Virus genome (UHGV): UHGV-0020019
Length of the DNA: 64,000 nucleotides
Source: a virus
Strand: one strand, 5' to 3'
Shown here: positions 1 through 30,482 of the stretch, piece by piece
How the letters are laid out: each line of letters opens with the position of its first letter
How positions within the stretch are numbered: position 1 is the stretch's first letter
Notes under the pieces: model-generated
The model's database searches: none
What the model was told of the DNA's origin: nothing
Seen by the model: the letters and a program-made list of their open reading frames with translations, nothing else
Position numbers and translations under genes: made by a program

Positions 1-3000
1 ATCTTCAAGCAATACAATAGAATAGAGCTGGAAATGCTTAGAAAATACTCCATAGAACTGGCTTTGGAAATCAGTCTCCTTACCACTCTTATCAGAAAGT
101 CTTTCAATAAGCTGGGATAACCAAGGGTTCTGCTTCTGCTTATCAGACAATCTCTTAATCATATCATCAAGAGATAATGCTCCCTGTGTCCATCTCAAGA
201 TACTATTGACAGACTCTCTAGGATTTACCCTTTCTGCAATTCCCCACTTACTATATACCTTGTTACCTTCTGCATCCAGGAGATAGCATTGATGAAGACC
301 TAATCTTACCAAGGCAGACATAGAGTTAAGAACATCAATGGTTCTAGATTCAACCTGCCAATGTTCCTGCTCATCCTTTTCTCCTTCTTCTGCTGCTATA
401 TCCTGATCATTGGAATAGTCATTGAAGTTATCAAAATCTACCTTAGAGTCTTCTGTGGTAGTAAAGTTACCTCTGCTATAGTCCTTGGTAATACCAAAGC
501 CTTCATTCATAGCAAAGATGTCTGCTGCCAGATACATAATAGCATCCCAGTTGTCTGTAATCAGCTGAGCCTGCATCATGGTATCTGTATCCTCATAATC
601 CATTACCTGAGGTGAGAACAGAGTTTTGGTTCTCTCAATAAGTCTATCCAAACCTACAGTTTCTACAATCTGCTTTCTAGATGCAGACTGAAAGTCTAGG
701 TCTGTATTGAGGGAAGGGAATAGAGTCTTTGCAAGACCTTCTTCCTTCTGAAGATTAGTAATCTCATCAGAGATAGAGTTAACTATCAGTTCTGCTGTAT
801 GACGAACTTCTGTAGCAGACAGAGAAGCACCAAGTTCCTCTAAGTCCTTGTCACCATTAAGCAGGTTGTCAATCTGCTTATTAAGCTTATCATACTCACT
901 TAGATTAGTCTCAACTTCTTTCTTCTGAGAATCCTTAGATTCCTGAAGATACTCTTTCTCACTTGTTGCTTGAAGCACTGTGTCCATTTGATTGATAATG
1001 TTTTGATTTTCCTCAAATGAGTTCTCCATAGATAACTGTGCATCCAATTCCTTTAAATAAGGTATCTTCCAGGTAGCATCTACTGGTGTCTCATCATAGA
1101 GGTCATTAAAGTATTCATAACCTGGAAGAGAAACTTTCTGTGTTTGTTCTTCTGGGAAAGAAGGATTAGTTACTTCTGTTTCAGTTCCTTTATTATCATC
1201 AAAGACTATAACATCAGGATTCTTCACTATATATTCTGTGTTATCTGCCCACATAGTTCCCTTGTCAAGCACAATAACATCAGCTGTAGTGTTTCTTCCA
1301 TTTTTTACATAGTCTCTAATATCTTTGTAGTGTTCTACTTTTGCAGTAGAAAGAATATGGAATTTGCTAACTTTAGCATAATCCCCAGTATAGTGTCTAT
1401 TGATTCTATTGCCTTCTGGATGCTCTGCTGTAGGAGGTTCAGGAGATTTATCTGTTCTACTCTTAGCATAATCAGTAGCCTCTTCTTCACTTGATGTAAA
1501 GTAGAGTGCTCCCTTAAGAGTTTCATCATAATCTACTGCTGTCTTTCCTACAGTTTCACCAAGAGTTTTAGCTTCTCTATCTTCCATTAAGGCATATCCT
1601 CGATAGATAGTAAGTGGTGATTTACCATCTTCTGAGTATAAACCATCTACTTCCTTAGATAACTGACTTAACTGATACTGTTGAGCAGCATCATAAGAGT
1701 CTTTATCAAAATGCTTAGGCTCTGCTACTTCATGGTCAACCATAAATACAACTTGAGGATTACCATGATTCTTTGCAATATTATCATGGTCATACTCCAT
1801 ATTGTAATCCATAGTTGCAGCAGTATGGAAACCTAAAGTCTTCTTATAGATAGCCTGTAATGGCTGCTTTGCACTCATGTAGGCATCAAGATGGGTAGCA
1901 CCTTCTTCCTTAACCATATCTTTAATAGCATAAAGGAAACCTTTATTAGTACTAGGGCTAAGAGAGAATACACTTATCAAATTGCCATCAGGTTCTATAG
2001 CAAATCCACATAAACCATCTTCTGTAATAAAGCATTTTGCATTAGAATAATTATCATGTAAATCTACTAATTCTCCATTAGGAAGATAGATTCTTACCAT
2101 CTCAAATATATCATGGAATAATTTTCCATCTACTCTTCCTACATTAAAAGTGCCTACACTATTATCTTTGTTTGTATGGGTTAAATGAGATTGGACGCCA
2201 TGCCAGCTACCATTGCTGTTGGCTCCCAAGAGTCCTCCCAGAATCCCTCCGATTCTTTCTTTATCCTCGTCATTAAGTTCCCTTTCTCTGAGCTGAAAGC
2301 TGGATACTCCTTTTTCAGAAAATTTACGGCTTCCTTCTTGAACTCTTCTAAACTCATCTGTTGTTTTGTATTCTTCTGTTCCATTTTCTTTTGAATTTTT
2401 ATTTTCAGAACGTGAATTACTTGAACTTATTGTATTATCTTTGATATTTTTATCAAGATGTAAAGGAGAGCCTTCTTTCTTGACATTGTTACTAATAATG
2501 GTAACAGTATCTGTAGCTCTTGATACACCAACATATTCAAGCTGCTGCTTGATATTAGCTACTTGATCAGGTTGAGTATTCTTTACTTCTACATCTACAT
2601 CACTAAGGTCTCCTAAATCAACTTCTTCAGAACTCTTTAACTCTGCATTGGCTGCATCATTTCTAGTCTCTTCTCCAAGGTCAACCATCTCCATAGCATT
2701 AGCAGCATTGTTGTCACTCATAGAAGCCCTAGATACATCTACATCATCCATCAGTACATGGGTAAAAGTAGAACCTTGTGACTTATGAATGGTAAGAGCA
2801 TAGCCAAAGTCAATAGTCTTAGCCTGTAAAAGGTTATGGCTATTATCTTCAATGTTATCATTGACAAAGAGGAAAGAATCAATAGCATTAATCTTAGCAT
2901 AGACTGCTGCCTTAGCTTCTCTACCATAAGCTCTTCTAGCTTCATTCCATAATCTCTTCTTCTCATTGGCAAGAATCATGGCACTCTGTCTATTCTGGGC

Positions 3001-6000
3001 ATTGTTCTTAATGTCCATGAAGTTGAATGTATCTATATTACCTAATGAGTCTTCAAGAGTAATAGGAACAGCCTGCATCACTACAGGAGTACCATTATCT
3101 AATCTGGTCTGTACTGTAGTAGGTCTGCCTACCTGAGTTACTTTGTATGATTCAGAATTAATGAATCTATAACTCTTAGTTCTCCATTCATATCCCCAGT
3201 TAGCATAACCTGTCATAGGCTCACCTACATGTGGAATAGGAGAGTCATAACCCAAAAGTTCTCTTACCTGATTATTGTAAGCAGTTACAGCCTTGTTGGT
3301 ATAAGCTAGGATTCTAAAGTAATTAGGATTCTGCTTCAAGCCTTTAACATACTTATCAATAACTTCATTGATAGCATCTTGATGCTGAGGAGCAATATAT
3401 GCAACACCCTCACCTTTACTATTGAATGATGATATCCTAGACAAAGGTTCTCCATTACGGATAGCTGTAGCTTCCTTAAGGATAGCATTGTCATCTGTTC
3501 TCTCTACTTGGGTAAGACGGATGACTTTACCTTCACCATTTCTAAAGACCTTAGAGATTTTATCCTCATTGACAGGAGCCAGCTGAGCTTCATCACCTAC
3601 ATAGATAATCTTAAGATCCATTTTCTTGGCAATATCATTAAGGATTTTATAATTCTCCTCATTGATCATAGAAGCTTCATCGATAATAATGGTAGTTCCT
3701 GGCATGATGTCTACATCCTTCAAGACATTTACCAAGTTTCTAGCATTATAAGATTTGCTTGAATCTACTTCTACATTGATACCAAACACCTTATTTAATG
3801 TAGATGCCTTGAAGCCAGCCTTAGATACTCTGTCATTAAGTACTGCTGCTGCCTTATTGGTTGTAGCACAGAACATCACAGGTCTATTCTGCTTCTGTCC
3901 TTTCTTAGCAATCATCTCCATAAGAGAAGTCTTACCAGTACCGGCATAGCCACTAAGAGTCATAGATGTCTCATTGGACTTCATGAATCTATCCATCTCA
4001 TTGAGAGCATCTATCTGCTGAGCATTTGGCTTGAATGGAGCTTTGACAGTAGTACCATCTGCAAATGTAAAGTCTTGAGGCACAGCTTTTCCACTGTGTT
4101 TATTATCTTCTGGTACATTGTTTACCAAATCATAATCAGCACTTTCCTGCTCAATAAGAGACAGCTCATCCTTAAGTTCCTTGCCAGATATAGTACTAAC
4201 AAACTCACCTGTCTTTGCATAATCTGCAATGTTGTTGTTTGTCTTAGAGAATGTTCCTATATTATCTGTTGCTGACTTAATCTGATTAGGATTATGAACA
4301 ACATATATAGTTTGATTCTCTTTCTTATTATCATCAAAACCAGTAAGGACTATACCATTTTCAGAACCCTTTCTTTTAGATGACTTATTTACTATCTCTC
4401 TATAAGAAGTTCCTTGCTTGTGCAAGTCTTCCTTAGTACCATGAAACACTTCTAAGTTTTTTATGTTCAAGAACAATGATAACTTGGCTTTTCTACTAGT
4501 TAAGAAATTATCCTCACTACCAGGCACAACATTATCTGTGGTAAAGAATATGGCGTTCTTAGTACCACCTGTCTTTGAGAAGAAATTATCGAACTCTGTG
4601 CTAAACTCAGACAGATTTTCATTATCAGTATAATGATAGACAACCAAAGGTTCTCCATTTTCATCTACTACTTTAGAAACATCTGAAGAATATGCTGGAG
4701 TGTAATTAGCCTCAATATCTGATGATTTAATATTACCACTTAATTTAGCTGTATCTTTAATAACAGATATTTGAGAATCATTAGAATCCCCATAATTTTT
4801 CAACAAAGAGTCTTCTGTAATTTCAATTAATCTAGGAGAATACTCTTTTGTAATGACAGCTTCCTTATATTCTTTATTACCTACATTGAATGTATTTCCA
4901 TTGGTAGAAATAAATTCAGTTTGAGGCATATCATATATATAAGGTTTACCATCAATACTCAATGCTGCTACATAGTGAGTTATGATTTTTCCTGTAACAG
5001 GACTTTTGGCATTTATTATATTAGTATGGGCTTCAATCCCATATCTATCCTTTAAGAATGCTTGTATTCTTTGTGCTGTATATTGACATATTCCATTTAA
5101 AGGATTTGACCTGTTAACTAAAGTTCCTACTTTTATAACATTAGATACGCCTATACTATTAAAACCAAATGGATCTTCTTTTGTAGTTTCTTTTCTTTCT
5201 ACTGGATGAGACAATATTTCATTAGAAGTAGAATAGGTATTTCCCAAAGGATCTTTTTTAAGTATATCTACATACTCTCCTGTTCTTTCCCAAGTAGATA
5301 AGCCATATTGTCTAGGAGGTGTATATTCCTTTTCCCAATCACCAAACCACTCTTTAAAGGCTTTAGTTCTAACTTGAAGCCACTGTCTTTCACTAAGATT
5401 AGAGTTCTTACCATTAGGTGCCTTCATAAAGGTACCGTTAGCAATAGCTTTGCTCTTTAAAGCTTGTAACTCTTCATTGTACACCTCTCTATTAAAGTCA
5501 TGAACAATTTCCTTCTTTAGTTCATCATCAGACAGTGTTCTGAAATCCCATTCCTTCTCATTATACTCCTTTCTCAAAGGATTCTTGATACCATTATATC
5601 TCATATAGGTATCAATATCAAAGGCATCAAGAGCTTTCTCCAAGGCATTCATTGACCTCTGATAGTATGTATTGGAGGTATGAAGACTAAGAAGAGTCTT
5701 GAAGGCATCAAGTACTCTAGACCAGAAAGACTTCTTATCCTTATTCTGCTTGTCAATCTCTTGAATCTTACTTCTAAAGACAGGATTACCAAGTTCTGCA
5801 ACAAATTCAAAGACATCAACAATGCCTCTTTCACCCTTTAAGATAGGATTGGTCTTGAGGTCTTGGTAGAGAGAATTAACTTCTGTACGGAACTCCTGCA
5901 AAGCTTCAGGTCTCTTCCAATTCTCAGTCTGATTGGAGAGAGCATACATAGAGATAGAATGAAGTACTTCATGAAGAATGATAGAAGCCTTCATATTGTT

Positions 6001-6666
6001 CATTATATCTCTTTCAAGGAAAGACTTCTTATAGATGATAGTATTGCTATTGGTGTATCTACCAATAGTTCCAAAAGGAAGAGATTCATTAAAAGATACC
6101 TCAATACCTAAGTCCTTAGCAATGCTAAAGACTTTATCAGCCAATACTTTAGAAGTTCTATCATCATTGAATCTGTTGTATAGCTCCTGAACCTTACTAA
6201 TTGTATAGGTTTGATTCTCCCTAATACCAAGATTAAGCTTCTTGACATCCCTCATAGAACCAATGTTGTCAAACTCATCAAAGAAATCATCTTTATCATA
6301 ATTAGCTTGTTCTACAGGTCGCTTAACAGAAAGTACATAATTTCCCTTAGCATTTTTGTAATGAACAATAGCAGACTGAGGGAAGAAGTTTGATGCTTCC
6401 TTCCTAGCTACCTGAAGTTCTCTAAGGGACCTAAATTCCTGTGGAGTATTATATCTCATCTCCCATAGTTTTCTTACAGACTTACCAGACTCCTGGTAAT
6501 GAGTATTACCAAGCTGAGCCTGAATATAAACATCTGTAGGAAAGAGAGTCTCATTCCCTGCTTCTAACCAATACTTGTGAGTAATAAGCTCAAGAGTATT
6601 ACTATTCACATTATTCCTTGTAGATAGATTCTTGAACTCTTTACTACTTATATTTACACATCCCAT
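1..6666 (-). CDS. Giant multidomain protein, 3'-partial (runs off the window start; at least 2222 aa). N-terminal HExxH zinc-metallopeptidase-like segment; central Dda/RecD-like SF1 helicase; long C-terminal region not assigned.
   Basis: Hand translation from the ATG at 6664-6666 downward gave more than 260 codons with no stop (MGCVNISSKEFKNLSTRNN...ASIILHEVLHSISMYA). Segments read at 3560-3960, about 2800, 2161-2280 and 1-60 are in the same frame (codon starts congruent to 1 mod 3) and stop-free. Helicase motifs read directly: GYAGTGKTSLM (Walker A), ATTNKAA, IIIDEASM, YVGDEAQLAPV, LTIHKSQGST. Its absence from the ORF track is explained by having no stop inside the window. Confidence 0.6.
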   Translation of the reverse strand, partial: MGCVNISSKEFKNLSTRNNVNSNTLELITHKYWLEAGNETLFPTDVYIQAQLGNTHYQESGKSVRKLWEMRYNTPQEFRSLRELQVARKEASNFFPQSAIVHYKNAKGNYVLSVKRPVEQANYDKDDFFDEFDNIGSMRDVKKLNLGIRENQTYTISKVQELYNRFNDDRTSKVLADKVFSIAKDLGIEVSFNESLPFGTIGRYTNSNTIIYKKSFLERDIMNNMKASIILHEVLHSISMYALSNQTENWKRPEALQEFRTEVNSLYQDLKTNPILKGERGIVDVFEFVAELGNPVFRSKIQEIDKQNKDKKSFWSRVLDAFKTLLSLHTSNTYYQRSMNALEKALDAFDIDTYMRYNGIKNPLRKEYNEKEWDFRTLSDDELKKEIVHDFNREVYNEELQALKSKAIANGTFMKAPNGKNSNLSERQWLQVRTKAFKEWFGDWEKEYTPPRQYGLSTWERTGEYVDILKKDPLGNTYSTSNEILSHPVERKETTKEDPFGFNSIGVSNVIKVGTLVNRSNPLNGICQYTAQRIQAFLKDRYGIEAHTNIINAKSPVTGKIITHYVAALSIDGKPYIYDMPQTEFISTNGNTFNVGNKEYKEAVITKEYSPRLIEITEDSLLKNYGDSNDSQISVIKDTAKLSGNIKSSDIEANYTPAYSSDVSKVVDENGEPLVVYHYTDNENLSEFSTEFDNFFSKTGGTKNAIFFTTDNVVPGSEDNFLTSRKAKLSLFLNIKNLEVFHGTKEDLHKQGTSYREIVNKSSKRKGSENGIVLTGFDDNKKENQTIYVVHNPNQIKSATDNIGTFSKTNNNIADYAKTGEFVSTISGKELKDELSLIEQESADYDLVNNVPEDNKHSGKAVPQDFTFADGTTVKAPFKPNAQQIDALNEMDRFMKSNETSMTLSGYAGTGKTSLMEMIAKKGQKQNRPVMFCATTNKAAAVLNDRVSKAGFKASTLNKVFGINVEVDSSKSYNARNLVNVLKDVDIMPGTTIIIDEASMINEENYKILNDIAKKMDLKIIYVGDEAQLAPVNEDKISKVFRNGEGKVIRLTQVERTDDNAILKEATAIRNGEPLSRISSFNSKGEGVAYIAPQHQDAINEVIDKYVKGLKQNPNYFRILAYTNKAVTAYNNQVRELLGYDSPIPHVGEPMTGYANWGYEWRTKSYRFINSESYKVTQVGRPTTVQTRLDNGTPVVMQAVPITLEDSLGNIDTFNFMDIKNNAQNRQSAMILANEKKRLWNEARRAYGREAKAAVYAKINAIDSFLFVNDNIEDNSHNLLQAKTIDFGYALTIHKSQGSTFTHVLMDDVDVSRASMSDNNAANAMEMVDLGEETRNDAANAELKSSEEVDLGDLSDVDVEVKNTQPDQVANIKQQLEYVGVSRATDTVTIISNNVKKEGSPLHLDKNIKDNTISSSNSRSENKNSKENGTEEYKTTDEFRRVQEGSRKFSEKGVSSFQLRERELNDEDKERIGGILGGLLGANSNGSWHGVQSHLTHTNKDNSVGTFNVGRVDGKLFHDIFEMVRIYLPNGELVDLHDNYSNAKCFITEDGLCGFAIEPDGNLISVFSLSPSTNKGFLYAIKDMVKEEGATHLDAYMSAKQPLQAIYKKTLGFHTAATMDYNMEYDHDNIAKNHGNPQVVFMVDHEVAEPKHFDKDSYDAAQQYQLSQLSKEVDGLYSEDGKSPLTIYRGYALMEDREAKTLGETVGKTAVDYDETLKGALYFTSSEEEATDYAKSRTDKSPEPPTAEHPEGNRINRHYTGDYAKVSKFHILSTAKVEHYKDIRDYVKNGRNTTADVIVLDKGTMWADNTEYIVKNPDVIVFDDNKGTETEVTNPSFPEEQTQKVSLPGYEYFNDLYDETPVDATWKIPYLKELDAQLSMENSFEENQNIINQMDTVLQATSEKEYLQESKDSQKKEVETNLSEYDKLNKQIDNLLNGDKDLEELGASLSATEVRHTAELIVNSISDEITNLQKEEGLAKTLFPSLNTDLDFQSASRKQIVETVGLDRLIERTKTLFSPQVMDYEDTDTMMQAQLITDNWDAIMYLAADIFAMNEGFGITKDYSRGNFTTTEDSKVDFDNFNDYSNDQDIAAEEGEKDEQEHWQVESRTIDVLNSMSALVRLGLHQCYLLDAEGNKVYSKWGIAERVNPRESVNSILRWTQGALSLDDMIKRLSDKQKQNPWLSQLIERLSDKSGKETDFQSQFYGVFSKHFQLYSIVLLED

Positions 6667-6773
6667 AAATTATTAATTATTTAATTTTGAGGCAAAAATA
6701 AGTAAATTCCTAAAGAGAAAGTTTTACTTAACTAATATCTTTATATTATTTAAAGGGTTTATTTGTTTAAACC

Positions 6774-21252: not shown

Positions 21253-21942
21253 TTAAAAATTATACTCTTTATACCATTCTACACCATAACCATAGTGACC
21301 TTTGAGAATATCATTTATCTGATACCATAGGTCAGAAGGCATCTTGGTGTGTGTTCTTGCATACCACGAAGGGTGCTTTATCTTGATAATATGGTTATAC
21401 TTTGAATTGATGTAAGATTCAAAGCTCTGAGCTTCAGAACCCATCAGTATATAGACAATACCACTGTCATAGTTAGAGAGATTAGTGAGAAAGGATTTAA
21501 TGAAAGGTCTCCACATAAGAGCATGAGAACCTATTTTACCTGCCTGACAGGAGAGTGCTGAATTTAACAACAGCACTCCCTGAGCTTCCCACTTCTCCAA
21601 ACTGGGGTCAAAGATAATATTTCCATGTGGGCGAGTGAAGTCAATAACTGACTCCATAAGAACATCTAAGGACTGTGAATAATTACATTCAAGAGTATCA
21701 TTAGAGTTTCCAAAGGCTATTCCTGTGGCTGTAGGCTTTCCATTCTTTATATCTGGGTAAGGGTCTTGACCTATAATGACAGTCTTCAAGTCATGCAATG
21801 AGCAGAGTGTAAAGGCTTTGAATATATCCTTTACCTTAGGACATATTACTTGTTTTGAATCTATCAATCTCTTGATTATTCTTTCAGCCTCTACTATGTC
21901 TACAACCTTACACCAATCTCCAAAATATTCCTGTATAGTCAT
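21253..21942 (-). CDS. Uracil-DNA glycosylase superfamily protein (divergent UNG-like)
   Basis: VIIGQDPYPD (cf. GQDPYH), GIAFGNS (cf. GLAFSV), HPSWYAR (cf. HPSPLS). Confidence 0.55.
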   Translation of the reverse strand: MTIQEYFGDWCKVVDIVEAERIIKRLIDSKQVICPKVKDIFKAFTLCSLHDLKTVIIGQDPYPDIKNGKPTATGIAFGNSNDTLECNYSQSLDVLMESVIDFTRPHGNIIFDPSLEKWEAQGVLLLNSALSCQAGKIGSHALMWRPFIKSFLTNLSNYDSGIVYILMGSEAQSFESYINSKYNHIIKIKHPSWYARTHTKMPSDLWYQINDILKGHYGYGVEWYKEYNF

Positions 21943-22694
21943 TCTATCACTTCATCTATATAGTTTAATACAGTACCAACTAACTCTTCATTGGTAGTAG
22001 AGATAGATGGAACATCAGTTTCTTTTATGACAAAAGGACAGTCTTCTACTAATACCTTTGCCTTCAAATTACAATCACCATTATTAGTCTCATATATTTT
22101 ACTTCTATAGATAGGAGAATAAATACGAGTTAATGACAAAGTTGTAGGAATAAGTTTATTAATAATAAATCGTTCTACAGTATTGCTTTTGTTTATAAAT
22201 ACTTCTGGAGCTACCCTAAGTATAGGTTTGATAAACTTATATCTAAAAGGATTCTGCTCATCATCCCTATATATCTTCTTTAATTCCCATGAGAGCATAA
22301 CTACAGGCTTGAAGTTTTCATCAAAGATTGCTCCATAAGTTCCATAATAGGTTTTTACAGGGTTACTTACAGTAATGAGTTTTCTTAAACGAGCACTTTT
22401 ATATGATGTTATACAAGCATCTCTAAAACAAGCCTCTACAGATTTATATGAAGTATAACTTCCTGTATTCTCCAAGTTTATTACTATTGCATCTATAGGT
22501 TTTTTATTTAGAATTTTTTCTGCTACTGTAGAAAGAGAATACATAGCCATTGTTGGAATTTCAATATTATCTCCTGTTACAGGGATTAGCATGTAAGAAG
22601 ATTTGCTTGTAAAACTTATTCCTCGATTTTGACTATAACTAGGAGAATCGAAGGCTTCAAAACAATAAGAAATTGTTGCTTTTAAATCTCTCAT
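21939..22694 (-). CDS. Hypothetical protein, 251 aa
   Basis: ORF-track ORF. Confidence 0.45.
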   Translation of the reverse strand: MRDLKATISYCFEAFDSPSYSQNRGISFTSKSSYMLIPVTGDNIEIPTMAMYSLSTVAEKILNKKPIDAIVINLENTGSYTSYKSVEACFRDACITSYKSARLRKLITVSNPVKTYYGTYGAIFDENFKPVVMLSWELKKIYRDDEQNPFRYKFIKPILRVAPEVFINKSNTVERFIINKLIPTTLSLTRIYSPIYRSKIYETNNGDCNLKAKVLVEDCPFVIKETDVPSISTTNEELVGTVLNYIDEVIE

Positions 22695-23785
22695 TAGCTT
22701 TCAGTTTTAAATATCATATTCTGTGCATCATACTCTGTAAAGAAAGGCAAATCATAAGGAATGATTGGATTTAAAGTGTTAGCTATGAAGTTCGTAAAGA
22801 GATTAACCATTAGGGAGCCAATCATGCAAGCAAGATATGTAGTTTGCTTCATAGAACATACTGTAGCATCAGCCATAGAATCAGAGAATAAAAATTCTTT
22901 CTTATACCTATCAATATTATACTGATCATCTCCTGTAATACAGAGTATCTGTAAGGTGTCAATACTTAATCTACCATCGAGATATAAGCATTTTTTTCTT
23001 TCTTCTTCTGTCTTATCTTTAATATGACCAACCCAAGAACTAAAGAATGTAGCTCTTGCTCTCATGTTATCAAAGCCACAAATCATAATATCCCCAGGCT
23101 CCATATCTGATGTAAATTTACTTTGAACAGTCCATACTTGCCTCATAGAAGTATAGTTATAAATCATATCAGCTATTGCATTTACCTTAGATTTACCTAT
23201 ATCATTAATGCTAAATAACTGACCAGCCATATTTACCATCTCTACAATATCATCATCATATAGAGTAAGATTTGCAGGAATCATTCTTGCTAACTGGAAA
23301 GCTACATTACTACCAATACCTCCAATGCCTGCAACAATGATTCTTGCTTTCTGTATTTCATTAAACCATTCTGCACCAGAAAATCTAGTAGTAGATTCAT
23401 CAATGAGAAGAGTAGGGGAGTTAAGGGGAATCTTTGCATCATCAGGAATACTATTCTCTGTAATAGCTGTAGATTCTTCCTGAGGCTCTTCTTCTTGTAT
23501 TGTTACTACAGTTTCAGCATCTCTTTCTTGGGCAATATCTACAGCAACATTCTCTGTATCAATATCATTTCTTTCTCTTTGATTTTCATCATAGGTTTCT
23601 TCTCCCTCTGATTCTTCAGAGAGACCATTATCTTCTATAATTTCATCAAGTTCTTCATTAGAAAGAGATAGGTTTGTCTCTTCTTCTGAATCAGACTCTT
23701 GAGGAGAATTATTAGCATTCTCTTGAGTTATTCCTATATTTAAATCTTGGAGAATACCATCAATATTATTCATATTTATATCCAT
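22694..23785 (-). CDS. E1-like / ThiF-MoeB-HesA family adenylyltransferase with an acidic low-complexity N-terminal ~130 aa
   Basis: Rossmann motif ARIIVAGIGGIGSNVAFQLARM. DDDIVEMVNMAGQLF (cf. DxDxVExSNLNRQ). Cys region ICGFDNMRAR (cf. DCTDN). Confidence 0.7.
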   Translation of the reverse strand: MDINMNNIDGILQDLNIGITQENANNSPQESDSEEETNLSLSNEELDEIIEDNGLSEESEGEETYDENQRERNDIDTENVAVDIAQERDAETVVTIQEEEPQEESTAITENSIPDDAKIPLNSPTLLIDESTTRFSGAEWFNEIQKARIIVAGIGGIGSNVAFQLARMIPANLTLYDDDIVEMVNMAGQLFSINDIGKSKVNAIADMIYNYTSMRQVWTVQSKFTSDMEPGDIMICGFDNMRARATFFSSWVGHIKDKTEEERKKCLYLDGRLSIDTLQILCITGDDQYNIDRYKKEFLFSDSMADATVCSMKQTTYLACMIGSLMVNLFTNFIANTLNPIIPYDLPFFTEYDAQNMIFKTES

Positions 23786-23787
23786 AA

Positions 23788-25029
23788 TTATTCTATAATA
23801 TTTGTAACAAGAGTTTCATTGTAAGCTTCAATAAACGGATTTACATCAATAAACTCCATAAGTTCATTACTCATAGCCTGTGCTATTCTACTTTGAATAA
23901 TTTCATAGGTTTCAAATAGAACATCAGGAACATCGGAAGTATCAAAATAATCTAATGTATATTGAATGATGAAGTCTTTCCACTCACTGAAAGCACCGCA
24001 GGAATCATGTTCACATTCATAGATACTTGATTCTCCAAATATCTTTATATAAACATTCTTCATGTGCTTAGTAATCCATTGCTTGAGGTCAAACTTATCA
24101 GGATTAATAATCAGGTTACATGTAATCATGTGGACTACAGCAGCATGAATCTTCTTAGGGTCTGGCTGCCAATCGTCAATATCAGTTGGATTGAATATGT
24201 GGTCATCTTTATAAGTGTACTTCGGAGCTTCTTTGTAAGAAGTATCCCCAAAGAGATTTTGTTCCTTAGGTACTGGCTTATAGTTCATCCAATCAAAGAA
24301 ATGACCTGTAGGAGCTATATTAGATGAATCATAATTATCTTTTTTTTCAATTGCTTTCTTTTTGGTAATCTCATCAAATCTAGCATCGAGATATTCTAAA
24401 GTATTAGGTACTTCATGCCTTTCTACTTCAAGGTCAAAGTATTCAATGACTTCTTTTTCTACAACTTTAGTAGTTTCTGTACTATCATGCTCCAGTTCTT
24501 TAGAACCTTCACCAAAGAACTCATAAGATGTACCTAACTTTTTGACTGTTACTTCTGATTTAGTCTGCACTTTTCTTGTAATGGCTGCATAGTATTTTCC
24601 TGCATTATTTACAATAAGAGATACAAAACAGTTCCTTTCATTGCCTTCTTCTTTCAATGTGTTTAAATCTGTACCACTCGGCTGAGTTGACATCTGATGA
24701 TGTGAATGAATTAACTGCAAATCACAGTCAAACAGCTCTATATTTTCAGACATATAAGCAGCTACGTCTTCACTCATCTTAAACTCAGTAAAAGTAGCAT
24801 TGCCTAAATCCATAGGATAAATATCCTTGCATGTGATTACTAAGTCATTGTTCTCAAAGGAGCCTTGATGGGTTACAAACAATACCCCAGACCATTCTGT
24901 AGTAGGGAATTTTCTGAGTAGATATCTAATTTTCTCTTCTACATTCTCAGGAACAATGAGTTTATAGGTAGATGACCCTTTCACAAGTAGGGGTAACTTC
25001 TTGGTTTCTTCTGTTTTTATTGTATTCAT
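23788..25029 (-). CDS. JAB/MPN+ (JAMM) metalloprotease domain protein with a ~250-aa C-terminal extension
   Basis: Exact JAMM motif HxHx7Sx2D: HSHHQMSTQPSGTD; upstream PTTEWSGVLF glutamate. Confidence 0.65.
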   Translation of the reverse strand: MNTIKTEETKKLPLLVKGSSTYKLIVPENVEEKIRYLLRKFPTTEWSGVLFVTHQGSFENNDLVITCKDIYPMDLGNATFTEFKMSEDVAAYMSENIELFDCDLQLIHSHHQMSTQPSGTDLNTLKEEGNERNCFVSLIVNNAGKYYAAITRKVQTKSEVTVKKLGTSYEFFGEGSKELEHDSTETTKVVEKEVIEYFDLEVERHEVPNTLEYLDARFDEITKKKAIEKKDNYDSSNIAPTGHFFDWMNYKPVPKEQNLFGDTSYKEAPKYTYKDDHIFNPTDIDDWQPDPKKIHAAVVHMITCNLIINPDKFDLKQWITKHMKNVYIKIFGESSIYECEHDSCGAFSEWKDFIIQYTLDYFDTSDVPDVLFETYEIIQSRIAQAMSNELMEFIDVNPFIEAYNETLVTNIIE

Positions 25030-26209
25030 TTTTGTATCTGAAATTAATTGTTCTAAGAATTTTTTGCAGTATGTACATTGCTAAATGACTACTAATAACA
25101 GTAGTTAGTGTTGATTCATTATTTTGTTCATTATCAATAATGGTAGTACGTATTTCCTTACCTTTGAATGTTAGTACCAGTTTATTTTGATAATTATTAA
25201 GATTGTTAACATAGGAGGTACTATCTCCATCTTCCGTATAAAATTTTCCGTTAGCAACCACAACTTGTCTTAATAAACCCCTTGTAAAGCAATTATTTAA
25301 ATTTTGAGCAGTAGTGCTGAAGTATTTATTATAGAAGTCAATAAATGAGTTGCTAATATCAATAATATATTCATAATAAGGCATTCCCCAAGTGAATGTA
25401 TTATTTATATATCTTAATGATAGATGACCATATTTTAAGTAATACTGAATAAATTCTTCTAAGTTGTTATTTGTAAATAGAGAAAGAAATTCCATATTAC
25501 TTGCATGGCTAAAGTTATAACCTATATATGAAGGAATTTGAGATTTATTTCCTATAGTTTCCATTCTGTGGTATGGACCACCTGAGATTGATTCTACAGT
25601 TACATACATGCTAAGTTCCTGGCAAAATAGCATCCAAGTAGCTTCATCATACTCATTATTCAATGTTCCAATAGTACTACGTATAGGACCCCTACCTAAA
25701 CATGGACTTTGAAATTTTGTGAAGTCATTCTTTGGAATTACATTAATGTGGCTATGCATGTAATTACTCATGAATTGTTCTCTTGTATAAGTAGCTCTAT
25801 TAAGTCTAAAGCCATGGCACTCATAAGGAATTGTACCATCACCCTGAATTTCAATCTTAGCATAAAGGTCTTTGATATTTACTGATTTATCATATTCATT
25901 AGAAATAGTTACTTGTGGCCACCATACATAGATAATGAATCTTTCATCTTCAGCTATATTTTTCAGTCCTGCTAATTGCTCTGCTGAAACTTCAAAATGC
26001 AGATTAAAGTCTTCTTCTTTATTTCCATTTGTAATATAGGCTTCATCACAAATCTTTGCAAATAAATATTCTTTGAATGATGATAATTCTCTTCCTTGTT
26101 GAGTCTGTATATCTACAAAATCTTCACCAAAGAATCCCTTGAATATATCATAGATACTTAAAGGTTTTTCAAAGAGATGCTGATATAATTGATTTACTGT
26201 ATATTCCAT
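24962..26209 (-). CDS. Hypothetical protein, 415 aa
   Basis: ORF-track ORF. Confidence 0.45.
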   Translation of the reverse strand: MEYTVNQLYQHLFEKPLSIYDIFKGFFGEDFVDIQTQQGRELSSFKEYLFAKICDEAYITNGNKEEDFNLHFEVSAEQLAGLKNIAEDERFIIYVWWPQVTISNEYDKSVNIKDLYAKIEIQGDGTIPYECHGFRLNRATYTREQFMSNYMHSHINVIPKNDFTKFQSPCLGRGPIRSTIGTLNNEYDEATWMLFCQELSMYVTVESISGGPYHRMETIGNKSQIPSYIGYNFSHASNMEFLSLFTNNNLEEFIQYYLKYGHLSLRYINNTFTWGMPYYEYIIDISNSFIDFYNKYFSTTAQNLNNCFTRGLLRQVVVANGKFYTEDGDSTSYVNNLNNYQNKLVLTFKGKEIRTTIIDNEQNNESTLTTVISSHLAMYILQKILRTINFRYKNEYNKNRRNQEVTPTCERVIYL

Positions 26210-26296
26210 AACTTTACTTTAGTTAATTGAAAAAATAAAGGGAGCAGAGACTTATTCTCCACTCCCTAATACAATTAAATGGCAAACAGTTATGTG

Positions 26297-27157
26297 TTAT
26301 ACTCCAAGTTCATCAATCATATCATCAATATCATTATCTGTGATACTGCCATCAGAAGTACTTACTGAAGGCTTTGGTGCTGTTTTCACTTTAGATGTAC
26401 CTTTCTCCTTCTTAGCAACCTTAATGAGATAATCAATATCATCCTTCAAGTCTTCAAGGTCTTCTACAGAGAGTACATCATTATTTACCAACATGGCAAT
26501 ATGAGCATACAAGGAATCTTCTGGAGTATTTATATCTAGATCTGTAATGATGTCTTCAATATAGTTTGGAAGATTCTCATCCATTTCCTCCTCTTCTTCA
26601 TCTTTAAGTTCATCAGCTACAGTATCTTCATCTTCTACCTCTGTAGGCTCTTCATTAAGTGTTTTAGTTATTTCTGAAACAACCCCATTCTGAGCAATGA
26701 ATACCAGCAAATCACTAGTAGGAACCTGTGTAAAGTTCCTACCAAACTCTTCTTTTACTGCATCTTGAAGATTATTATCCTTAATAGCCTGATATGCTTC
26801 CTTTCTAGTCATAGTACCAGAAGAAATGTTTTTCTTGGTATTGGTAAGCAGAATAACCAAGTTATTGGTAGGTTGACCCTTATACATTACATTCTGTGGC
26901 AACTGTGTAGCATCATTGAGAAGCTGAGTTTTAGAAATACCTTCAGTAAAGGTCATATTACTATAGTCAATACCAGCAGCTCGCAAGTCTGCCTTCAATT
27001 CTCCAAGTGTTGTAGCACTGGTAGTTATCTTACTTCTCTTCTGAGTTTTTGTATTTGCGATCAAAATTTCTCTTTCCATAATCTTTGTTTTGTTAATTGA
27101 ATAATTGTTGTAATTGTTTGAATTGTGTTTTGTCTTCCAAGGCTTTATAGTGGTCAC
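26297..27157 (-). CDS. Hypothetical protein with an acidic C-terminal region, 286 aa
   Basis: ORF-track ORF; DEDTVADELKDEEEEEMDE stretch. Confidence 0.45.
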   Translation of the reverse strand: MTTIKPWKTKHNSNNYNNYSINKTKIMEREILIANTKTQKRSKITTSATTLGELKADLRAAGIDYSNMTFTEGISKTQLLNDATQLPQNVMYKGQPTNNLVILLTNTKKNISSGTMTRKEAYQAIKDNNLQDAVKEEFGRNFTQVPTSDLLVFIAQNGVVSEITKTLNEEPTEVEDEDTVADELKDEEEEEMDENLPNYIEDIITDLDINTPEDSLYAHIAMLVNNDVLSVEDLEDLKDDIDYLIKVAKKEKGTSKVKTAPKPSVSTSDGSITDNDIDDMIDELGV

Positions 27158-28097
27158 TAAAGTCTTTCTGACTACCTAGATTTGGAATAATATTAGTAAA
27201 GCCAGTACGCTTAGCTAACTTTTCTCCATCTATTCTGCCTGCTTCGTCAGTATCAAAACTGATAAATATTTTCTTGTATCTCCTTTTTAGTTCATTAATG
27301 GCAGTATCAGACATAGAGTATCCTTCGCCCTGTAGACAAATGGTAGGTATATGTAACTGACAAGAGATAACCAATGCATCCTTTAATGAAGAACAAATTA
27401 CAACTCTATCACCATATTCAGGAATCTTTGTCCATAATCCTATAACAGATGCATCCATCTTGGAATACCATTTATAGCCTTTAGTATTATAGGGTTGATA
27501 TAACTTTAGTTGTAGTTGTTCTTCCTTTCTTTCTACATAACAATAAGCATATTTATCTGTAGGGAAAATATACTGTTTACTCTTACCAGTTACTGAATCC
27601 TTTTTAGTAATAATCTTATAGGAGACAGGATATATTTCTGCATACTTTAGCCATTGCTTTGAGATGCCATAAGATGCCCAGTACTCATAATCATACTCTC
27701 TCCAAGGTCTGACCTTAACCTCTAACTTAGTGAGTCGGTTAGCCTCCTTTCTTGTGAGAGTCTTTATCTGCTTGGGCTTAATTGTTACATTGTCATCCTT
27801 AATCATTAACTTACAGATTTTATCCAAAGCCTGATTAAAAGTACAGTTCCAATACTCACATAGTAAATCAATCAATCCTCCTTGAACATTAGTATCTCCA
27901 AAGTCCTTATACATGATATGGTTAGTATTGCTCATATAAATGCTGAAGGATGGGTGATTGTCAGTTCTTAAAGGAGAGTTGATTACACAAGGGATTTCAG
28001 TAATTTCTGGAAACACAGTACATAATACCTGTGTTTCACTGAATTTACTAAATATCTCTGTCTTAGATATACTGGAAGAAGTTTTACCTACTACCAT
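27093..28097 (-). CDS. DnaG-like DNA primase (zinc-binding region plus TOPRIM)
   Basis: NHPSFSIY region (cf. CPFHxEKTPSF); TOPRIM LQGEGY ... FDTDEAGR. Confidence 0.55.
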   Translation of the reverse strand: MVVGKTSSSISKTEIFSKFSETQVLCTVFPEITEIPCVINSPLRTDNHPSFSIYMSNTNHIMYKDFGDTNVQGGLIDLLCEYWNCTFNQALDKICKLMIKDDNVTIKPKQIKTLTRKEANRLTKLEVKVRPWREYDYEYWASYGISKQWLKYAEIYPVSYKIITKKDSVTGKSKQYIFPTDKYAYCYVERKEEQLQLKLYQPYNTKGYKWYSKMDASVIGLWTKIPEYGDRVVICSSLKDALVISCQLHIPTICLQGEGYSMSDTAINELKRRYKKIFISFDTDEAGRIDGEKLAKRTGFTNIIPNLGSQKDFSDHYKALEDKTQFKQLQQLFN

Positions 28098-28132
28098 AAG
28101 ATTATTACTTTAAAAGGGTTAATTTTAGGGTT

Positions 28133-29050
28133 TTAGTCCCAAGGCATATCACCACTACCAGAAGCAGTACCTGTTTCTACTGGTGCAGCATTGAGATTAG
28201 TTGCCTGTACATTATACTCTGTAAGTTCCTGTACTGCAAACTCTGTTGAAGCATAAGAACCATTATCCTTAGCATTGGCAAGGTCTTTCTCCAAGCGTGC
28301 AAGAGCCTTAGAGCCTGCATAGTTAGGAAGAATCATACCATTACGTGTAGCAATAGCCTGATACTGCTTACCATCATCTGTAGTACGTACACCATAGAGA
28401 AGCTTTACCTTATTGTTAGGCTGAAGAGCAATAGCCTCCTTAATCTCTGAGAAGTCACCCTTGAAGTAGTCCTTGATATGCTCAAGACCAAATACAAAGT
28501 CATCAGTATTCTCCTTCAATACCCAAGAACCATTAACATAGTTAAAGGCATCACCTACACAGAGATAAGGCTTCAAGAAGCCAATAAGGTCTGCTTCACC
28601 TACACAAGCTATACGATAGTCAGGAGCAATCTTTGCAGGATTTCCATTCTTAGTAAAGAGAGGTTTACCAGCCTTTGCATCTTCAGCATTAGCCCAAGTA
28701 GCATTGCCAAACTTATCAATAACCTGTGCTTTAGCCTGGTCTTGACTATATGCAGGAGCATTACGTAGGGTAAACATTACTCTATTAATCATTTCTACAC
28801 CATTGCAGGTATCTGGGTCTGTCTTTACAATAAATGTAATTCGTGCTTCCTTGCCATTATCAGTATCTACAACATACTCTGGATCATTAGCAATCTCATG
28901 ACCATAGATGTCTTCAAGTTCCTTCTTTGTAGGATTTACTGCTACTACAAAAGAAGAACCTACACCTACATACTTCTTGAACTCCTGAGCTTCTTTTGAC
29001 TCCTGTGTCTTGCCAATAGCAAGGAAACTGTAACTATTATTAATCATCAT
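28133..29050 (-). CDS. Hypothetical protein, 305 aa (possibly ssDNA-binding or annealing; unassigned)
   Basis: Position next to Sak4 and primase; ends GSGDMPWD; no confident motif. Confidence 0.4.
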   Translation of the reverse strand: MMINNSYSFLAIGKTQESKEAQEFKKYVGVGSSFVVAVNPTKKELEDIYGHEIANDPEYVVDTDNGKEARITFIVKTDPDTCNGVEMINRVMFTLRNAPAYSQDQAKAQVIDKFGNATWANAEDAKAGKPLFTKNGNPAKIAPDYRIACVGEADLIGFLKPYLCVGDAFNYVNGSWVLKENTDDFVFGLEHIKDYFKGDFSEIKEAIALQPNNKVKLLYGVRTTDDGKQYQAIATRNGMILPNYAGSKALARLEKDLANAKDNGSYASTEFAVQELTEYNVQATNLNAAPVETGTASGSGDMPWD

Positions 29051-29113
29051 AACTGTTTGTATTTAAAATATTGTTTATTATTATTGTTTACTATTTGTTG
29101 GTTTATACTATAA

Positions 29114-29617
29114 TTACTCAAAGATTGGTGCATCTGTAGGAATATCTTCTGTCTCTACAGCCTGTGCATCCTCATTATTTACTTCTGTGTCAGTATCAGG
29201 TTCCTCAGTTGAGGTCTCCATGTTATTCTCTTCACTTGTGGCTGTTGTTTCTTCACTTTCAGAAAAAGACTTTGATACCTCTTTTGTGTTATCATCAGGA
29301 ATGTGGATTACATACTGCTTATGCTGCTCATCATAAGAAACAATATCTGTAGGAAGATACTTTGTTGTCTTCTTAGGCTGACCATTGGCATCTACACCAG
29401 GCTCAATAACCTTCTTTACAAGTTCCTCTACACGGAAACCTATTACCTGCTTAATGCCTGTTTCCAATGAAGCAATCTGAGTATCATAGTCCTTAAATTC
29501 TTTAGCAAGAGCTTCAATTTTTACTTTGATTTTCTCACGCTTTACCATAAGTGGATTACAAGCCTGTGCTACACGTTTAACTGACTGAAACTGATCAAAT
29601 GAAATTCTTTTTTCCAT
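29114..29617 (-). CDS. Hypothetical protein with an acidic tail ending DIPTDAPIFE (SSB-tail-like)
   Basis: ORF-track ORF; acidic C-terminus. Confidence 0.4.
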   Translation of the reverse strand: MEKRISFDQFQSVKRVAQACNPLMVKREKIKVKIEALAKEFKDYDTQIASLETGIKQVIGFRVEELVKKVIEPGVDANGQPKKTTKYLPTDIVSYDEQHKQYVIHIPDDNTKEVSKSFSESEETTATSEENNMETSTEEPDTDTEVNNEDAQAVETEDIPTDAPIFE

Positions 29618-29663
29618 TGTTTTTGATTTTTAAATTGTTATTTATGAATTGAATGTTTATTGT

Positions 29664-30482
29664 TTAATTTGCTGTATCAAGGAAAATTTGACTCATATCT
29701 ACCTTGATATTACCTTTATCATCAGATTCTGCAACCTGAAATACCTTTTCTCTAAGATGTAATGGTCTTGAACCCCTAATGGCATTATCTCCTCCAACAA
29801 AAGAAATTAGAGTTTTATTATCTTTTCGGTAAACATAACCAATAGCATCTGCTTCACCACAGACAATATCTCCTGTCTTTCCTGCAAGATCTACAGCCAT
29901 TTCTGTTGTTTCTTCATCATTCTTCTTAATTTGCTTATCCTTAACATGACATACAAGAATAAGTGTGTCACATAAAGGCTTGAACATATTGATCATCTCC
30001 TTAAGTGCAGAACGAAGATATGTATAGCCTGCTCCATTAGGTAATTGGCGTACATCTGCCTTAGGATCAACTACCTTATTACCAGCTTTGTCTTTAAGGA
30101 TATTACCAATCTTATCTTTCTTATATCCATAATTTGCACCCATAGGTGTTTTACGGTACAAAGCTGCTGCATAGACTAATGACATTTCTTCCAGCCTAGT
30201 TGCATTATCAATAGTTATAAAACGGTAGAATGGTTTCCCATTATTTTCTTCATTCTTCTGTGCAATAAGATTCTTGATTTCAAAGATGTCATTGACACTT
30301 CTTGCCTGTACTGCCATTACATCCAATGCACGATAACCATCTTCCAAATCAATGATAAGATTGTTATTAAGACTAGCCATAATAGTGCTTTTCCCATTTT
30401 TAGGCTTTCCGTAAAGGACTATCAACCTTGGGTTGTAGTCTGTAGCTTTCCTACGCTCTGTAGGTAAAACAATGTTACTCAT
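29664..30482 (-). CDS. Sak4-like RecA-fold ATPase (AAA_24 family)
   Basis: LIVLYGKPKNGKSTIMASL Walker A near the N-terminus; 272 aa, typical size. Confidence 0.6.
   Translation of the reverse strand: MSNIVLPTERRKATDYNPRLIVLYGKPKNGKSTIMASLNNNLIIDLEDGYRALDVMAVQARSVNDIFEIKNLIAQKNEENNGKPFYRFITIDNATRLEEMSLVYAAALYRKTPMGANYGYKKDKIGNILKDKAGNKVVDPKADVRQLPNGAGYTYLRSALKEMINMFKPLCDTLILVCHVKDKQIKKNDEETTEMAVDLAGKTGDIVCGEADAIGYVYRKDNKTLISFVGGDNAIRGSRPLHLREKVFQVAESDDKGNIKVDMSQIFLDTAN

Follow-up and report, generated by a model that had tools for sequence, protein, structure and literature searches.

What are the genes for a ubiquitin-type activating enzyme and for a metalloprotease of the kind that cleaves ubiquitin-like proteins doing inside the replication module of a bacteriophage? 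To our knowledge, ubiquitin-style tagging kits have so far been known in cells, and several of them are anti-phage defences. The question is raised by the virus genome UHGV-0020019, a crAss-like phage, of which a stretch of 64,000 nucleotides (nt), hereafter the window, was analysed. An initial annotation of this DNA had placed an E1/ThiF-like adenylyltransferase gene and an adjoining JAB (JAMM/MPN+) metalloprotease gene between the genes of UDG and primase, a placement borne out by the coordinates of both neighbours, and had seen no recognisable ubiquitin-like protein (Ubl) or E2 nearby. However, candidates for both are encoded just upstream, and the two enzyme genes are therefore not an orphan pair but the downstream half of a five-gene cassette, A-B-C-D-E, in which a predicted Ubl precursor (A), an E2-like protein (B), the JAB protease (C), the E1 (D) and a fifth protein, X (E), follow each other on the minus strand from 27079 to 21939 (Table 1). 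We give a slightly better than even chance to the reading that this cassette is a self-contained ubiquitin-like conjugation pathway, for which a core role in the infected cell is favoured.

The arrangement of the five genes is constant. When hidden Markov models of the five families were run on 88 related loci and the window, the order A-B-C-D-E was recovered in 87 of the 89 phage loci, the other two being cut at contig ends; the E1 and JAB genes, whose joint conservation had been named as a point to check, are strictly kept together in relatives. The same order is found in three more distant loci with E1 identities of 38–40%, and in Flavobacterium phage FpV4 (gp53 to gp49), where UDG lies on the opposite side, which indicates that the five genes move as a unit. 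Of 50,697 deposited phage records, 74 contain gene D and 74 contain gene B, and the breakdown by organism and by host is the same for both. The hosts of the loci with the block are Bacteroides and Flavobacterium, and one contig is assigned to Puia (Chitinophagaceae). The nearest deposited relatives belong to the Steigviridae (Crassvirales) of Bacteroides (crAss001, the PhiCrAssBcn isolates, DAC15, cr85_1, cr126_1 and cr111_1) and to the unclassified “bajarodcaudo virus 1”, and their E1 proteins are about 45–57% identical to that of the window. Relatives of the E1 were also present in 372 IMG/VR stretches. Scanning 185,579 prokaryotic species, one genome each, yielded only 11 loci, either phage-sized contigs binned into metagenome-assembled genomes (MAGs) or phage-like replication modules in long contigs, and no cellular counterpart of the cassette was found at this sensitivity; within the window, no second copy of the Ubl, JAB, E1 or B gene was found elsewhere. 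Since the block is fixed beside the primase in widely diverged Bacteroidota phages, a core role is preferred to that of an accessory anti-defence set.

Table 1. Features of the cassette and its surroundings; positions refer to the window unless a relative's locus is named.
Feature	Position	Strand	Basis or remark
Primase gene	27093-28097	-	Upstream neighbour of the cassette
Gene A, predicted Ubl precursor, 260 amino acids (aa)	26297-27079	-	AlphaFold2 model, conservation, position
Predicted Ubl beta-grasp domain of A (residues 1-80) and tail TKKNISSG	26816-27079	-	Tail ends in S87-G88
Predicted three-helix domain of A behind the Gly, residues 89-133	26681-26815	-	AlphaFold2 model
Acidic, mostly disordered C-terminal extension of A	26300-26680	-	40 D/E in 128 residues
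Intrinsic-terminator-like hairpin, 12-bp stem followed by UUAUUUUUUC	26229-26267	-	Between A and B; z = -4.4
Gene B, E2-like, 415 aa, family without a Pfam match	24962-26209	-	Model, invariant residues
H152-S-H154 of B	25748-25756	-	Invariant
C170 of B	25700-25702	-	Invariant
Gene C, JAMM/MPN+ metalloprotease, 413 aa	23788-25029	-	Motif, family profile, conservation
Gene D, single-domain ThiF/E1-type adenylyltransferase, 363 aa	22694-23785	-	Pfam, hhalign, conservation
Acidic N-terminal extension of the E1, residues 1-130	23395-23785	-	Composition; variable up to about residue 117
Gene E (X), 251 aa	21939-22694	-	Fifth cassette member; conserved position
UDG gene	21253-21942	-	Other side of the cassette
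A-B hairpins in relatives	L002 3412-3495; L003 5397-5478; L004 3001-3072		Position and structure kept
A-B hairpins in relatives	L005 3390-3463; L007 3362-3426; L008 3684-3768		Position and structure kept

The clearest members of the cassette are the two enzymes already recognised by the initial annotation, both of which are encoded by open reading frames with exactly the boundaries and motifs it had described. The product of gene D carries GIGGIG at residues 153–158, DDDIVEMVNMAGQLF at 177–191 and ICGFDNMRAR at 235–244, and it matches the Pfam family ThiF (PF00899) with an E value of 1.8e-18 and 67 bits (cut-off 28.1); the ATP-binding fold with its GxGxxG loop and the adenylation-site residues by which this superfamily is defined are both present. 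An hhalign comparison with E. coli ThiF/MoeB, whose sequences were entered by hand, gave a probability of 96.6% over residues 142–290, the ATP-binding half. The family invariants are the glycine loop, D177, K200, GFD239-x-M-x-A-R244 and C310 (22856-22858), and GFD239-N-M-x-A-R244, aligned to DCTDNMATR of ThiF, stands in all 92 E1 sequences. The core of about 245 residues (approximately 118–363) comprises one adenylation domain, with about 25 conserved residues ahead of the Rossmann fold. Judged from its spacing, C310, in the crossover region, probably has its approximate counterpart in ThiF Cys184, as it follows the end of the ThiF alignment by some 20 residues, the same as C184 does. CxxC zinc motifs are missing from the E1 family (the hhalign alignment stops right before ThiF C169), and no rhodanese domain was found in the phage E1.

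The affiliation of this E1 within its superfamily is another matter. All NCBIfam equivalog scores are far below their cut-offs, with PRK08644 at 76.8 bits against 159, thiF_fam2 at 62.9 against 152, adenyl_thiF at 49.7 against 275 and MoeB at 39.5 against 449, and the E1 accordingly does not belong to a biosynthetic ThiF/MoeB clade, which had been named as a possible refutation. Nevertheless, the GenBank records of gene D mostly read “thiamine biosynthesis protein (ThiF)”, among them those of crAss001, PhiCrAssBcn, cr85_1, cr126_1, cr111_1 and FpV4, while one reads “E1 enzyme family protein”; the thiamine label is unsupported, because the equivalog scores are too low and no thiamine gene was found among the ten neighbouring proteins. 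Among solved structures, the family profile finds MccB and PaaA first (E ~4e-10), with UBA5 narrowly behind. The acidic, low-complexity N-terminal 130 residues that had struck the initial annotation as unusual do contain 40 D/E as opposed to 4 K/R. Across the family, this extension ranges from 0 to about 170 residues, is conserved in close relatives only and is missing from FpV4, cr111_1 and cr85_1; it is therefore a lineage-specific appendage. More speculatively, A and the E1 both have acidic tails similar to those on neighbouring proteins of the replication module.

In gene C, the JAMM motif HSHHQMSTQPSGTD occupies residues 108–121 of a JAMM domain spanning approximately residues 20–160, and the catalytic set comprises E45, H108, H110, S118 and D121. 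These residues, including the Zn ligands whose loss would have spoken against the protease, are retained in 88–90 of 91 unique homologues, the exceptions being nearly all alignment gaps. The catalytic Glu is E45, within an EWSG motif; E82 had been a candidate for this position, being invariant in an alignment of eight sequences, and was rejected as it varies in the larger set. The match to Pfam Prok-JAB reaches 21.8 bits (E=1.8e-4), under the gathering score of 25, and the family profile matches the Pyrococcus (P. furiosus) JAMM1 desampylase (E=0.002) and CSN5 with HxH...S..D in register, which makes an archaeal Ubl-cleaving JAMM the closest solved relative. The extension of about 250 residues that had been noted behind the JAB domain is real (approximately residues 160–413), and no relatives of this region were detectable. 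GenBank names the protein at best “metalloprotease domain containing protein”, A, B and E are called hypothetical, and in PHROGs the genes A, C and D match families of “unknown function” only.

The missing Ubl is to be sought in gene A, which adjoins the primase gene directly, in the same position in all relatives. Its start is taken to be the ATG at 27079 and not the GTG at 27157, because the homologues measure 259–261 aa. By sequence, nothing informative was returned for it by Pfam, NCBIfam, PHROGs or PADLOC, and a profile search of the PDB was empty. Its own profile finds 5195 clusters at 90% identity. An AlphaFold2 model built from an alignment of 51 sequences shows a beta-beta-alpha-beta...beta arrangement at residues 3–80 (pLDDT ~80), a low-confidence linker at 83–88 reading K-x-I-x-S-G, helices at 92–101, 105–112 and 121–130 (pLDDT 81–86), and then a long disordered acidic region ending in a helix. 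Residues 1–80 are thus predicted to adopt a ubiquitin-like beta-grasp fold, and the flexible tail that follows them ends in an invariant glycine: all 87 unique sequences have Gly88, and in 86 of them it is preceded by Ser87, the exception being L098, the most divergent locus, with Gly-Gly. In crAss001, where gp79, gp78, gp77, gp76 and gp75 correspond to A, B, C, D and E, the tail reads KKIKSG. Conservation in A is lowest past the Gly, and the divergent homologue on the Puia contig (L099) lacks the helical domain, whereas the Ubl part and the Gly are always retained. An invariant glycine with dispensable sequence behind it is the pattern to be expected of a Ubl precursor that is trimmed to a C-terminal glycine, and by analogy G88 is proposed as the site of cleavage and activation; it is internal in A, at the end of the low-confidence tail, and would need cleavage to become C-terminal. 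As for the remainder of A, the three helices may tentatively be regarded as a HeH/SAP-like nucleic-acid-binding motif, a Pfam scan of the 51 members having given a weak HeH match in only two of them (E=0.044), and the final acidic helix is conserved with the consensus S..EIDDMF. The same scan gave two weak matches to the Crinkler N-terminal domain, which is ubiquitin-like.

The E2 that had likewise been reported as absent is best looked for in gene B. The predicted model of its product resembles E2, UEV and RWD folds, with a UBC-like core at approximately residues 76–212 in which a helix (76–87) and three strands (90–103, 109–122 and 134–142) are followed by a long loop and two further helices (175–185 and 189–204), an order in the model that fits the E2 core. 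Eleven residues in or near this core, N104, R138, H152, S153, H154, C170, G172, E206, S207, G210 and P212, are invariant down to 19% identity in a family that counts 2246 clusters at 50% identity among 1.84 billion representatives. Residues 91–219 are the portion still recognisable in the Flavobacterium phages, and a very divergent member of 637 residues reads HPHLSGGMGINSFCLG. In the B protein of L098 the motif reads HPHL..FCLG, as compared with HPNI..ICLD (HPNI..G.ICLD) of canonical E2s; a candidate catalytic Cys downstream of an HPN-type motif can accordingly be read in the sequence. Non-catalytic UEV and RWD domains are not known to have this Cys. Pfam, NCBIfam, PHROGs and PADLOC were uninformative on B, a PDB profile search was empty, and a Pfam scan of 46 diverse members found no recurrent family. 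The assignment of B as E2-like, which comes from one structural comparison of a predicted model, should be regarded as the weakest link of the pathway.

Gene E is conserved in position and little else. It is the fastest-evolving member, with a mean column identity of 29% as opposed to 47% for the E1, and only four of its positions are conserved, none of them Cys, His or Lys. No homologues were detected in Pfam, NCBIfam, PHROGs, PADLOC or a PDB profile search, and hhalign found no relationship to B or to C. The protein is probably not an enzyme; most simply, it may be an adaptor or a target.

The spacing of the genes completes the picture. From B to E, each gene overlaps or directly adjoins the next, at typical distances of -62/-68, -4 and -1 nt. 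The B-C overlap, 68 nt in the window (24962-25029), amounts to 62–68 nt in most loci and is always 2 mod 3; both protein ends are poorly conserved there, and the overlap could serve translational coupling. The start of gene E overlaps the stop of gene D by 1 nt. The 87-nt gap between A and B, on the other hand, is the one place in the region where a strong terminator-like element is found. A GC-rich hairpin with a U-run occupies this junction in six other phages, including FpV4, with differing sequence, and in 49 of 66 unique junctions altogether, at a median of -20 kcal/mol. Such a hairpin either would allow the tag gene to be expressed in excess of the enzyme genes or would mark A as the end of the upstream primase unit.

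D is an E1 and C a JAB, A is predicted to fold as a Ubl and carries an invariant Gly, and the genes strictly co-occur in a fixed order; on this basis, we infer the following chemistry. Protein A would be made as a precursor consisting of an 80-residue Ubl, the tail K-x-I-x-S-G and a variable helical and acidic extension, and the JAMM protease C would cut it after Gly88, so that the Ubl would end in glycine and the extension would come free as a second product. The E1, presumably a homodimer like ThiF and MoeB, would adenylate Gly88 with ATP and take over the Ubl as a thioester, probably on Cys310, from where it could be handed to Cys170 of B and then onto lysines of target proteins. The same protease might also undo the mark, and protein E could be either the target or an adaptor that selects it. 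The hairpin past A would keep the tag in excess over the translationally coupled B-C-D-E. In this way, phage or host proteins may be tagged at or around the replication stage.

Several observations weigh against this conjugation pathway. The case for cleavage at G88 is made from conservation and analogy, and the cassette has no E3. The correspondence of C310 with ThiF Cys184 derives from spacing and not from an alignment, as hhalign ends at residue 290, and the E1 as a whole is about equally distant from the non-conjugating MccB, PaaA and TcdA, from UBA5, ThiF, Cap2 and MoeB. For B, a Foldseek search of the PDB gave no match and an hhalign comparison of its profile with a canonical E2 profile was negative (0.07%); its invariant H-x-H...C...E-S set could be a metal site instead. 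Lastly, the hairpin could equally place A in the transcription unit of the primase and outside the cassette.

With which of the known systems, then, does the cassette agree? BilABCD (Bacterial ISG15-like) operons, of which Hor et al. are said to have reported in 2024, share with it the four roles in the order Ubl, E2, JAB deubiquitinase and E1, the residues past the reactive Gly of the Ubl (trimmed by the JAB of the same operon in Bil and presumably so in the phage), the lack of an E3, and an E2-like protein with a conserved Cys, a Glu and two His. In BilABCD types I and II, as described by Chambers et al. (PMC10557695), the Ubl is cut by the JAB behind Gly97 and then attached to lysines by E1 and E2, no E3 being involved. 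The differences are nonetheless considerable. BilABCD is found in bacterial defence islands, whereas the cassette lies in the replication module of a lytic-type phage, and all of its loci are phage genomes or phage-like contigs, none of them a bacterial defence island. BilD has the architecture IAD-AAD-CYS with a Cys4 zinc site, and the phage E1 has neither the inactive adenylation domain (IAD) nor the mobile CYS domain nor the zinc. A CEHH-type E2, as in type II BilB with C138-E144-H146-H151, was considered for B and rejected, since the order of its conserved residues is H-x-H...C...E. The extension of the Ubl measures about 170 residues in phage A as opposed to a single residue in E. aridi BilA, and the fifth conserved gene has no place in BilABCD. 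In PADLOC, the BilD model reaches only E=9e-5 on the E1, and A, B and C are without a match among the Bil models.

The other systems are further removed. Cap2 of type II CBASS is an E2-E1 fusion that conjugates the C-terminus of a CD-NTase and not a Ubl, whereas in the phage the E1 and the E2-like protein are separate and come with a Ubl of their own; the E1-E2 models of PADLOC match the E1 domain only (approximately residues 140–240), and neither a CD-NTase nor an effector was found among the neighbours of the cassette. Bub (6E/DUF6527) systems form serine oxyesters and do without catalytic cysteines (PMC11601596), whereas C310 and C170 are invariant in the phage proteins; the Ubl-E2 and JAB-E1 (or E2-E1) fusions and the DUF6527 serine protease of Bub are missing from the cassette, DUF6527 having no Pfam match in its proteins. 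PRTRC (ParB-related, ThiF-related) sets of plasmids and integrative and conjugative elements are similarly built around a ThiF-family protein of a mobile element, and yet the PRTRC_ThiF model scores 37 bits on the E1 against a cut-off of 144.75, and none of the other PRTRC models (A–F) matches. Since the cassette falls outside Bil, Cap2/Cap3, Bub, PRTRC and ThiF/MoeB alike, it is best described as Bil-like in its working and as a separate, phage-specific lineage. The comparison with Cap2/Cap3 and Bil drawn by the initial annotation is to be kept in this sense of “works like”, and to be given up as a statement of family membership.

Of the three roles that had been suggested for the pair, autonomous protein tagging by the phage is the favoured one, and anti-defence or another adenylation-based activity are rated lower. 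The anti-defence alternative survives best, even if we hold it to be unlikely. It invokes the same chemistry for another end: the JAB would strip host Ubl or cGAS conjugates, namely the products of Bil or Cap2, and the Ubl, E1 and E2 of the phage would inactivate host defence proteins by tagging them or protect phage proteins from tagging by the host. Bacterial operons of Ubl, E1, E2 and JAB do serve anti-phage immunity (PMC10557695, PMC11601596), the best PADLOC matches of the phage E1 are Cap2-type E1-E2 proteins (E ~2e-12) and its JAB weakly matches Cap3-type JABs, and the fast evolution of gene E is as expected in an arms race with host factors. Anti-defence genes, however, are usually small, variable and accessory, whereas the order and position of the cassette are fixed in a block that spans Bacteroides phages, Flavobacterium phages and the Puia contig at E1 identities down to 35–40%. 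A mere deconjugase, moreover, would need no Ubl, E1 and E2 of its own, and Cap3 and BilC are matched only weakly (E values of at least 0.0025).

Conjugation might also be dispensed with altogether. The Ubl would then be a cleavable chaperone or regulatory pro-domain of the helical and acidic protein behind it, comparable to ubiquitin-ribosomal protein fusions and to lambda TAPI/TAPK; the JAB would only mature A, B would be a non-catalytic UEV/RWD-like scaffold, and the E1 would adenylate some other substrate, either a peptide C-terminus in the manner of MccB and PaaA or a nucleic-acid base in the manner of TcdA. The rank of MccB and PaaA ahead of UBA5 among the solved matches of the E1 profile is in keeping with this, as is a precedent in lambdoid tail assembly for a phage Ubl and JAB without conjugation (PMC1779556). 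In the lambdoid and T1 phages, TAPI is a phage Ubl with a conserved Gly and a further domain for which release by the JAB of TAPK is predicted, but these genes belong to the tail module, have no E1 or E2 beside them and fuse the JAB to NlpC/P60 (Iyer et al. 2006, PMC1779556). What makes the processing-only explanation improbable is that the supposed cargo is precisely the part of A that is least conserved and partly lost in L099, in contrast to the invariant Ubl and Gly; that B keeps its invariant His-x-His and Cys where E2s carry HPN...C; and that the E1 retains C310 in the crossover region and is without the N-terminal peptide clamp of MccB.

A sulfur carrier is the least probable alternative. 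The trimmed Ubl would here be adenylated and converted to a thiocarboxylate that donates sulfur to a nucleotide, a tRNA base or a cofactor, as in ThiS/ThiF, MoaD/MoeB, CysO/Mec+ and TtuB/TtuC, with B as the sulfur-using enzyme. Likenesses to ThiF/MoeB-ThiS/MoaD and CysO/Mec+ are the single-domain E1 of ThiF size with significant profile similarity over its ATP-binding half and a small beta-grasp partner that would end in Gly once trimmed by the JAB; ThiF models head the NCBIfam matches of the E1, GenBank gives it a thiamine name, sulfur-assimilation clusters of JAB, E1 and ThiS/MoaD-like proteins are known (PMC1779556), and the cassette lies among genes of nucleotide metabolism (the NrdD-like reductase and UDG). 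The explanation is weakened by the sub-cut-off ThiF/MoeB scores, by an E1 with neither CxxC motifs nor rhodanese domain and by a B model that is like E2/UEV/RWD and unlike any sulfurtransferase. The ten neighbouring proteins (21253-30482) also include no recognised product of a thiamine, molybdopterin or sulfur-transfer gene, be it a thiazole synthase, MoaE, a PP-loop thiolase, a cysteine desulfurase or a rhodanese.

None of the findings that the initial annotation had named as fatal to the pair, be it a biosynthetic E1 clade, degenerate Zn ligands or separate occurrence in relatives, was thus made, and the self-contained conjugation pathway remains the preferred reading.

In the surroundings of the cassette, every gene lies on the minus strand, and the local order is a Sak4-like ATPase, two open reading frames without assignment, the primase, genes A–E and UDG; beyond UDG come more small open reading frames, the gene of a PD-(D/E)XK nuclease and that of an NrdD-like, anaerobic ribonucleotide reductase. 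Upstream of the primase, the frames 28133-29050 and 29114-29617 of the minus strand encode proteins with acidic tails and tips like those of single-strand DNA-binding proteins (...GSGDMPWD and ...DAPIFE, respectively), and the counterpart of the former in L098 ends in ...GSGDWY; the product of 28133-29050 is probably the single-strand DNA-binding protein of the phage. At the other end of the analysed DNA, positions 1-6669 (minus strand) are spanned by an open frame that extends past the start of the window and encodes 2223 aa or more.

Some of the loci recovered from prokaryotic assemblies have peculiarities of their own. L089–L096 are crAss-like contigs (88–111 kb, or fragments) in MAGs labelled as Bacilli, Acholeplasmatales, Clostridium, Spirochaetia and Bifidobacterium, labels that probably reflect binning contamination and carry no information on the host. 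L097 lies on a contig of 639,747 bp from a Bacilli MAG, far larger than a crAss-like genome; upstream of the cassette, positions 1–4400 contain hardly any open reading frames of at least 90 aa under translation table 11, and two large Big_2-plus-amidase proteins follow downstream. Stop-codon reassignment or a chimeric assembly may explain the region poor in open reading frames. In L099, a contig of 373,651 bp from a Puia sp. MAG, the cassette is embedded in a phage-type replication module of DnaB, primase, PD-(D/E)XK nuclease and family A polymerase, and could represent a prophage, an integrated element or a mis-assembly.

A literature search found no paper linking crAss-like phages with ThiF, JAB or ubiquitin-like proteins, although subscription journals are poorly covered, so that an earlier mention is possible; one apparent match, “jaberico”, is a species name unrelated to JAB. 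Among the DNA phages of the human gut, crAss-like phages are reported to be the most abundant (PMC11475920). That these and related Bacteroidota phages own a complete Ubl system, an ancient core element of the replication module by which host or phage proteins are covalently tagged during infection, is a tentative proposition that we rate just short of an even chance. The idea is directly testable, as at least three systems, crAss001 (B. intestinalis), DAC15 (B. thetaiotaomicron) and FpV4 (F. psychrophilum), are in culture. The widespread mis-annotation of gene D as a thiamine biosynthesis protein is corrected.

If the proposition holds, the cassette would be the first full Ubl cascade to be assigned to a bacteriophage, and it would give functions to several conserved “hypothetical” genes of the Steigviridae. 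Prokaryotic Ubl chemistry as such is known; new would be the phage as its carrier, the Ubl fusion precursor and the fifth gene, and the machinery of the ubiquitin type would gain a minimal, single-domain E1 and a new E2-like family. The Bil, Cap2/Cap3 and Bub systems have recently been shown or proposed to act in anti-phage immunity and to serve as models for the origin of ubiquitination. The phage cassette would reverse the direction, with the virus doing the tagging, and would represent a viral counterpart, and perhaps a relative or even the source, of the Bil-type immune systems.

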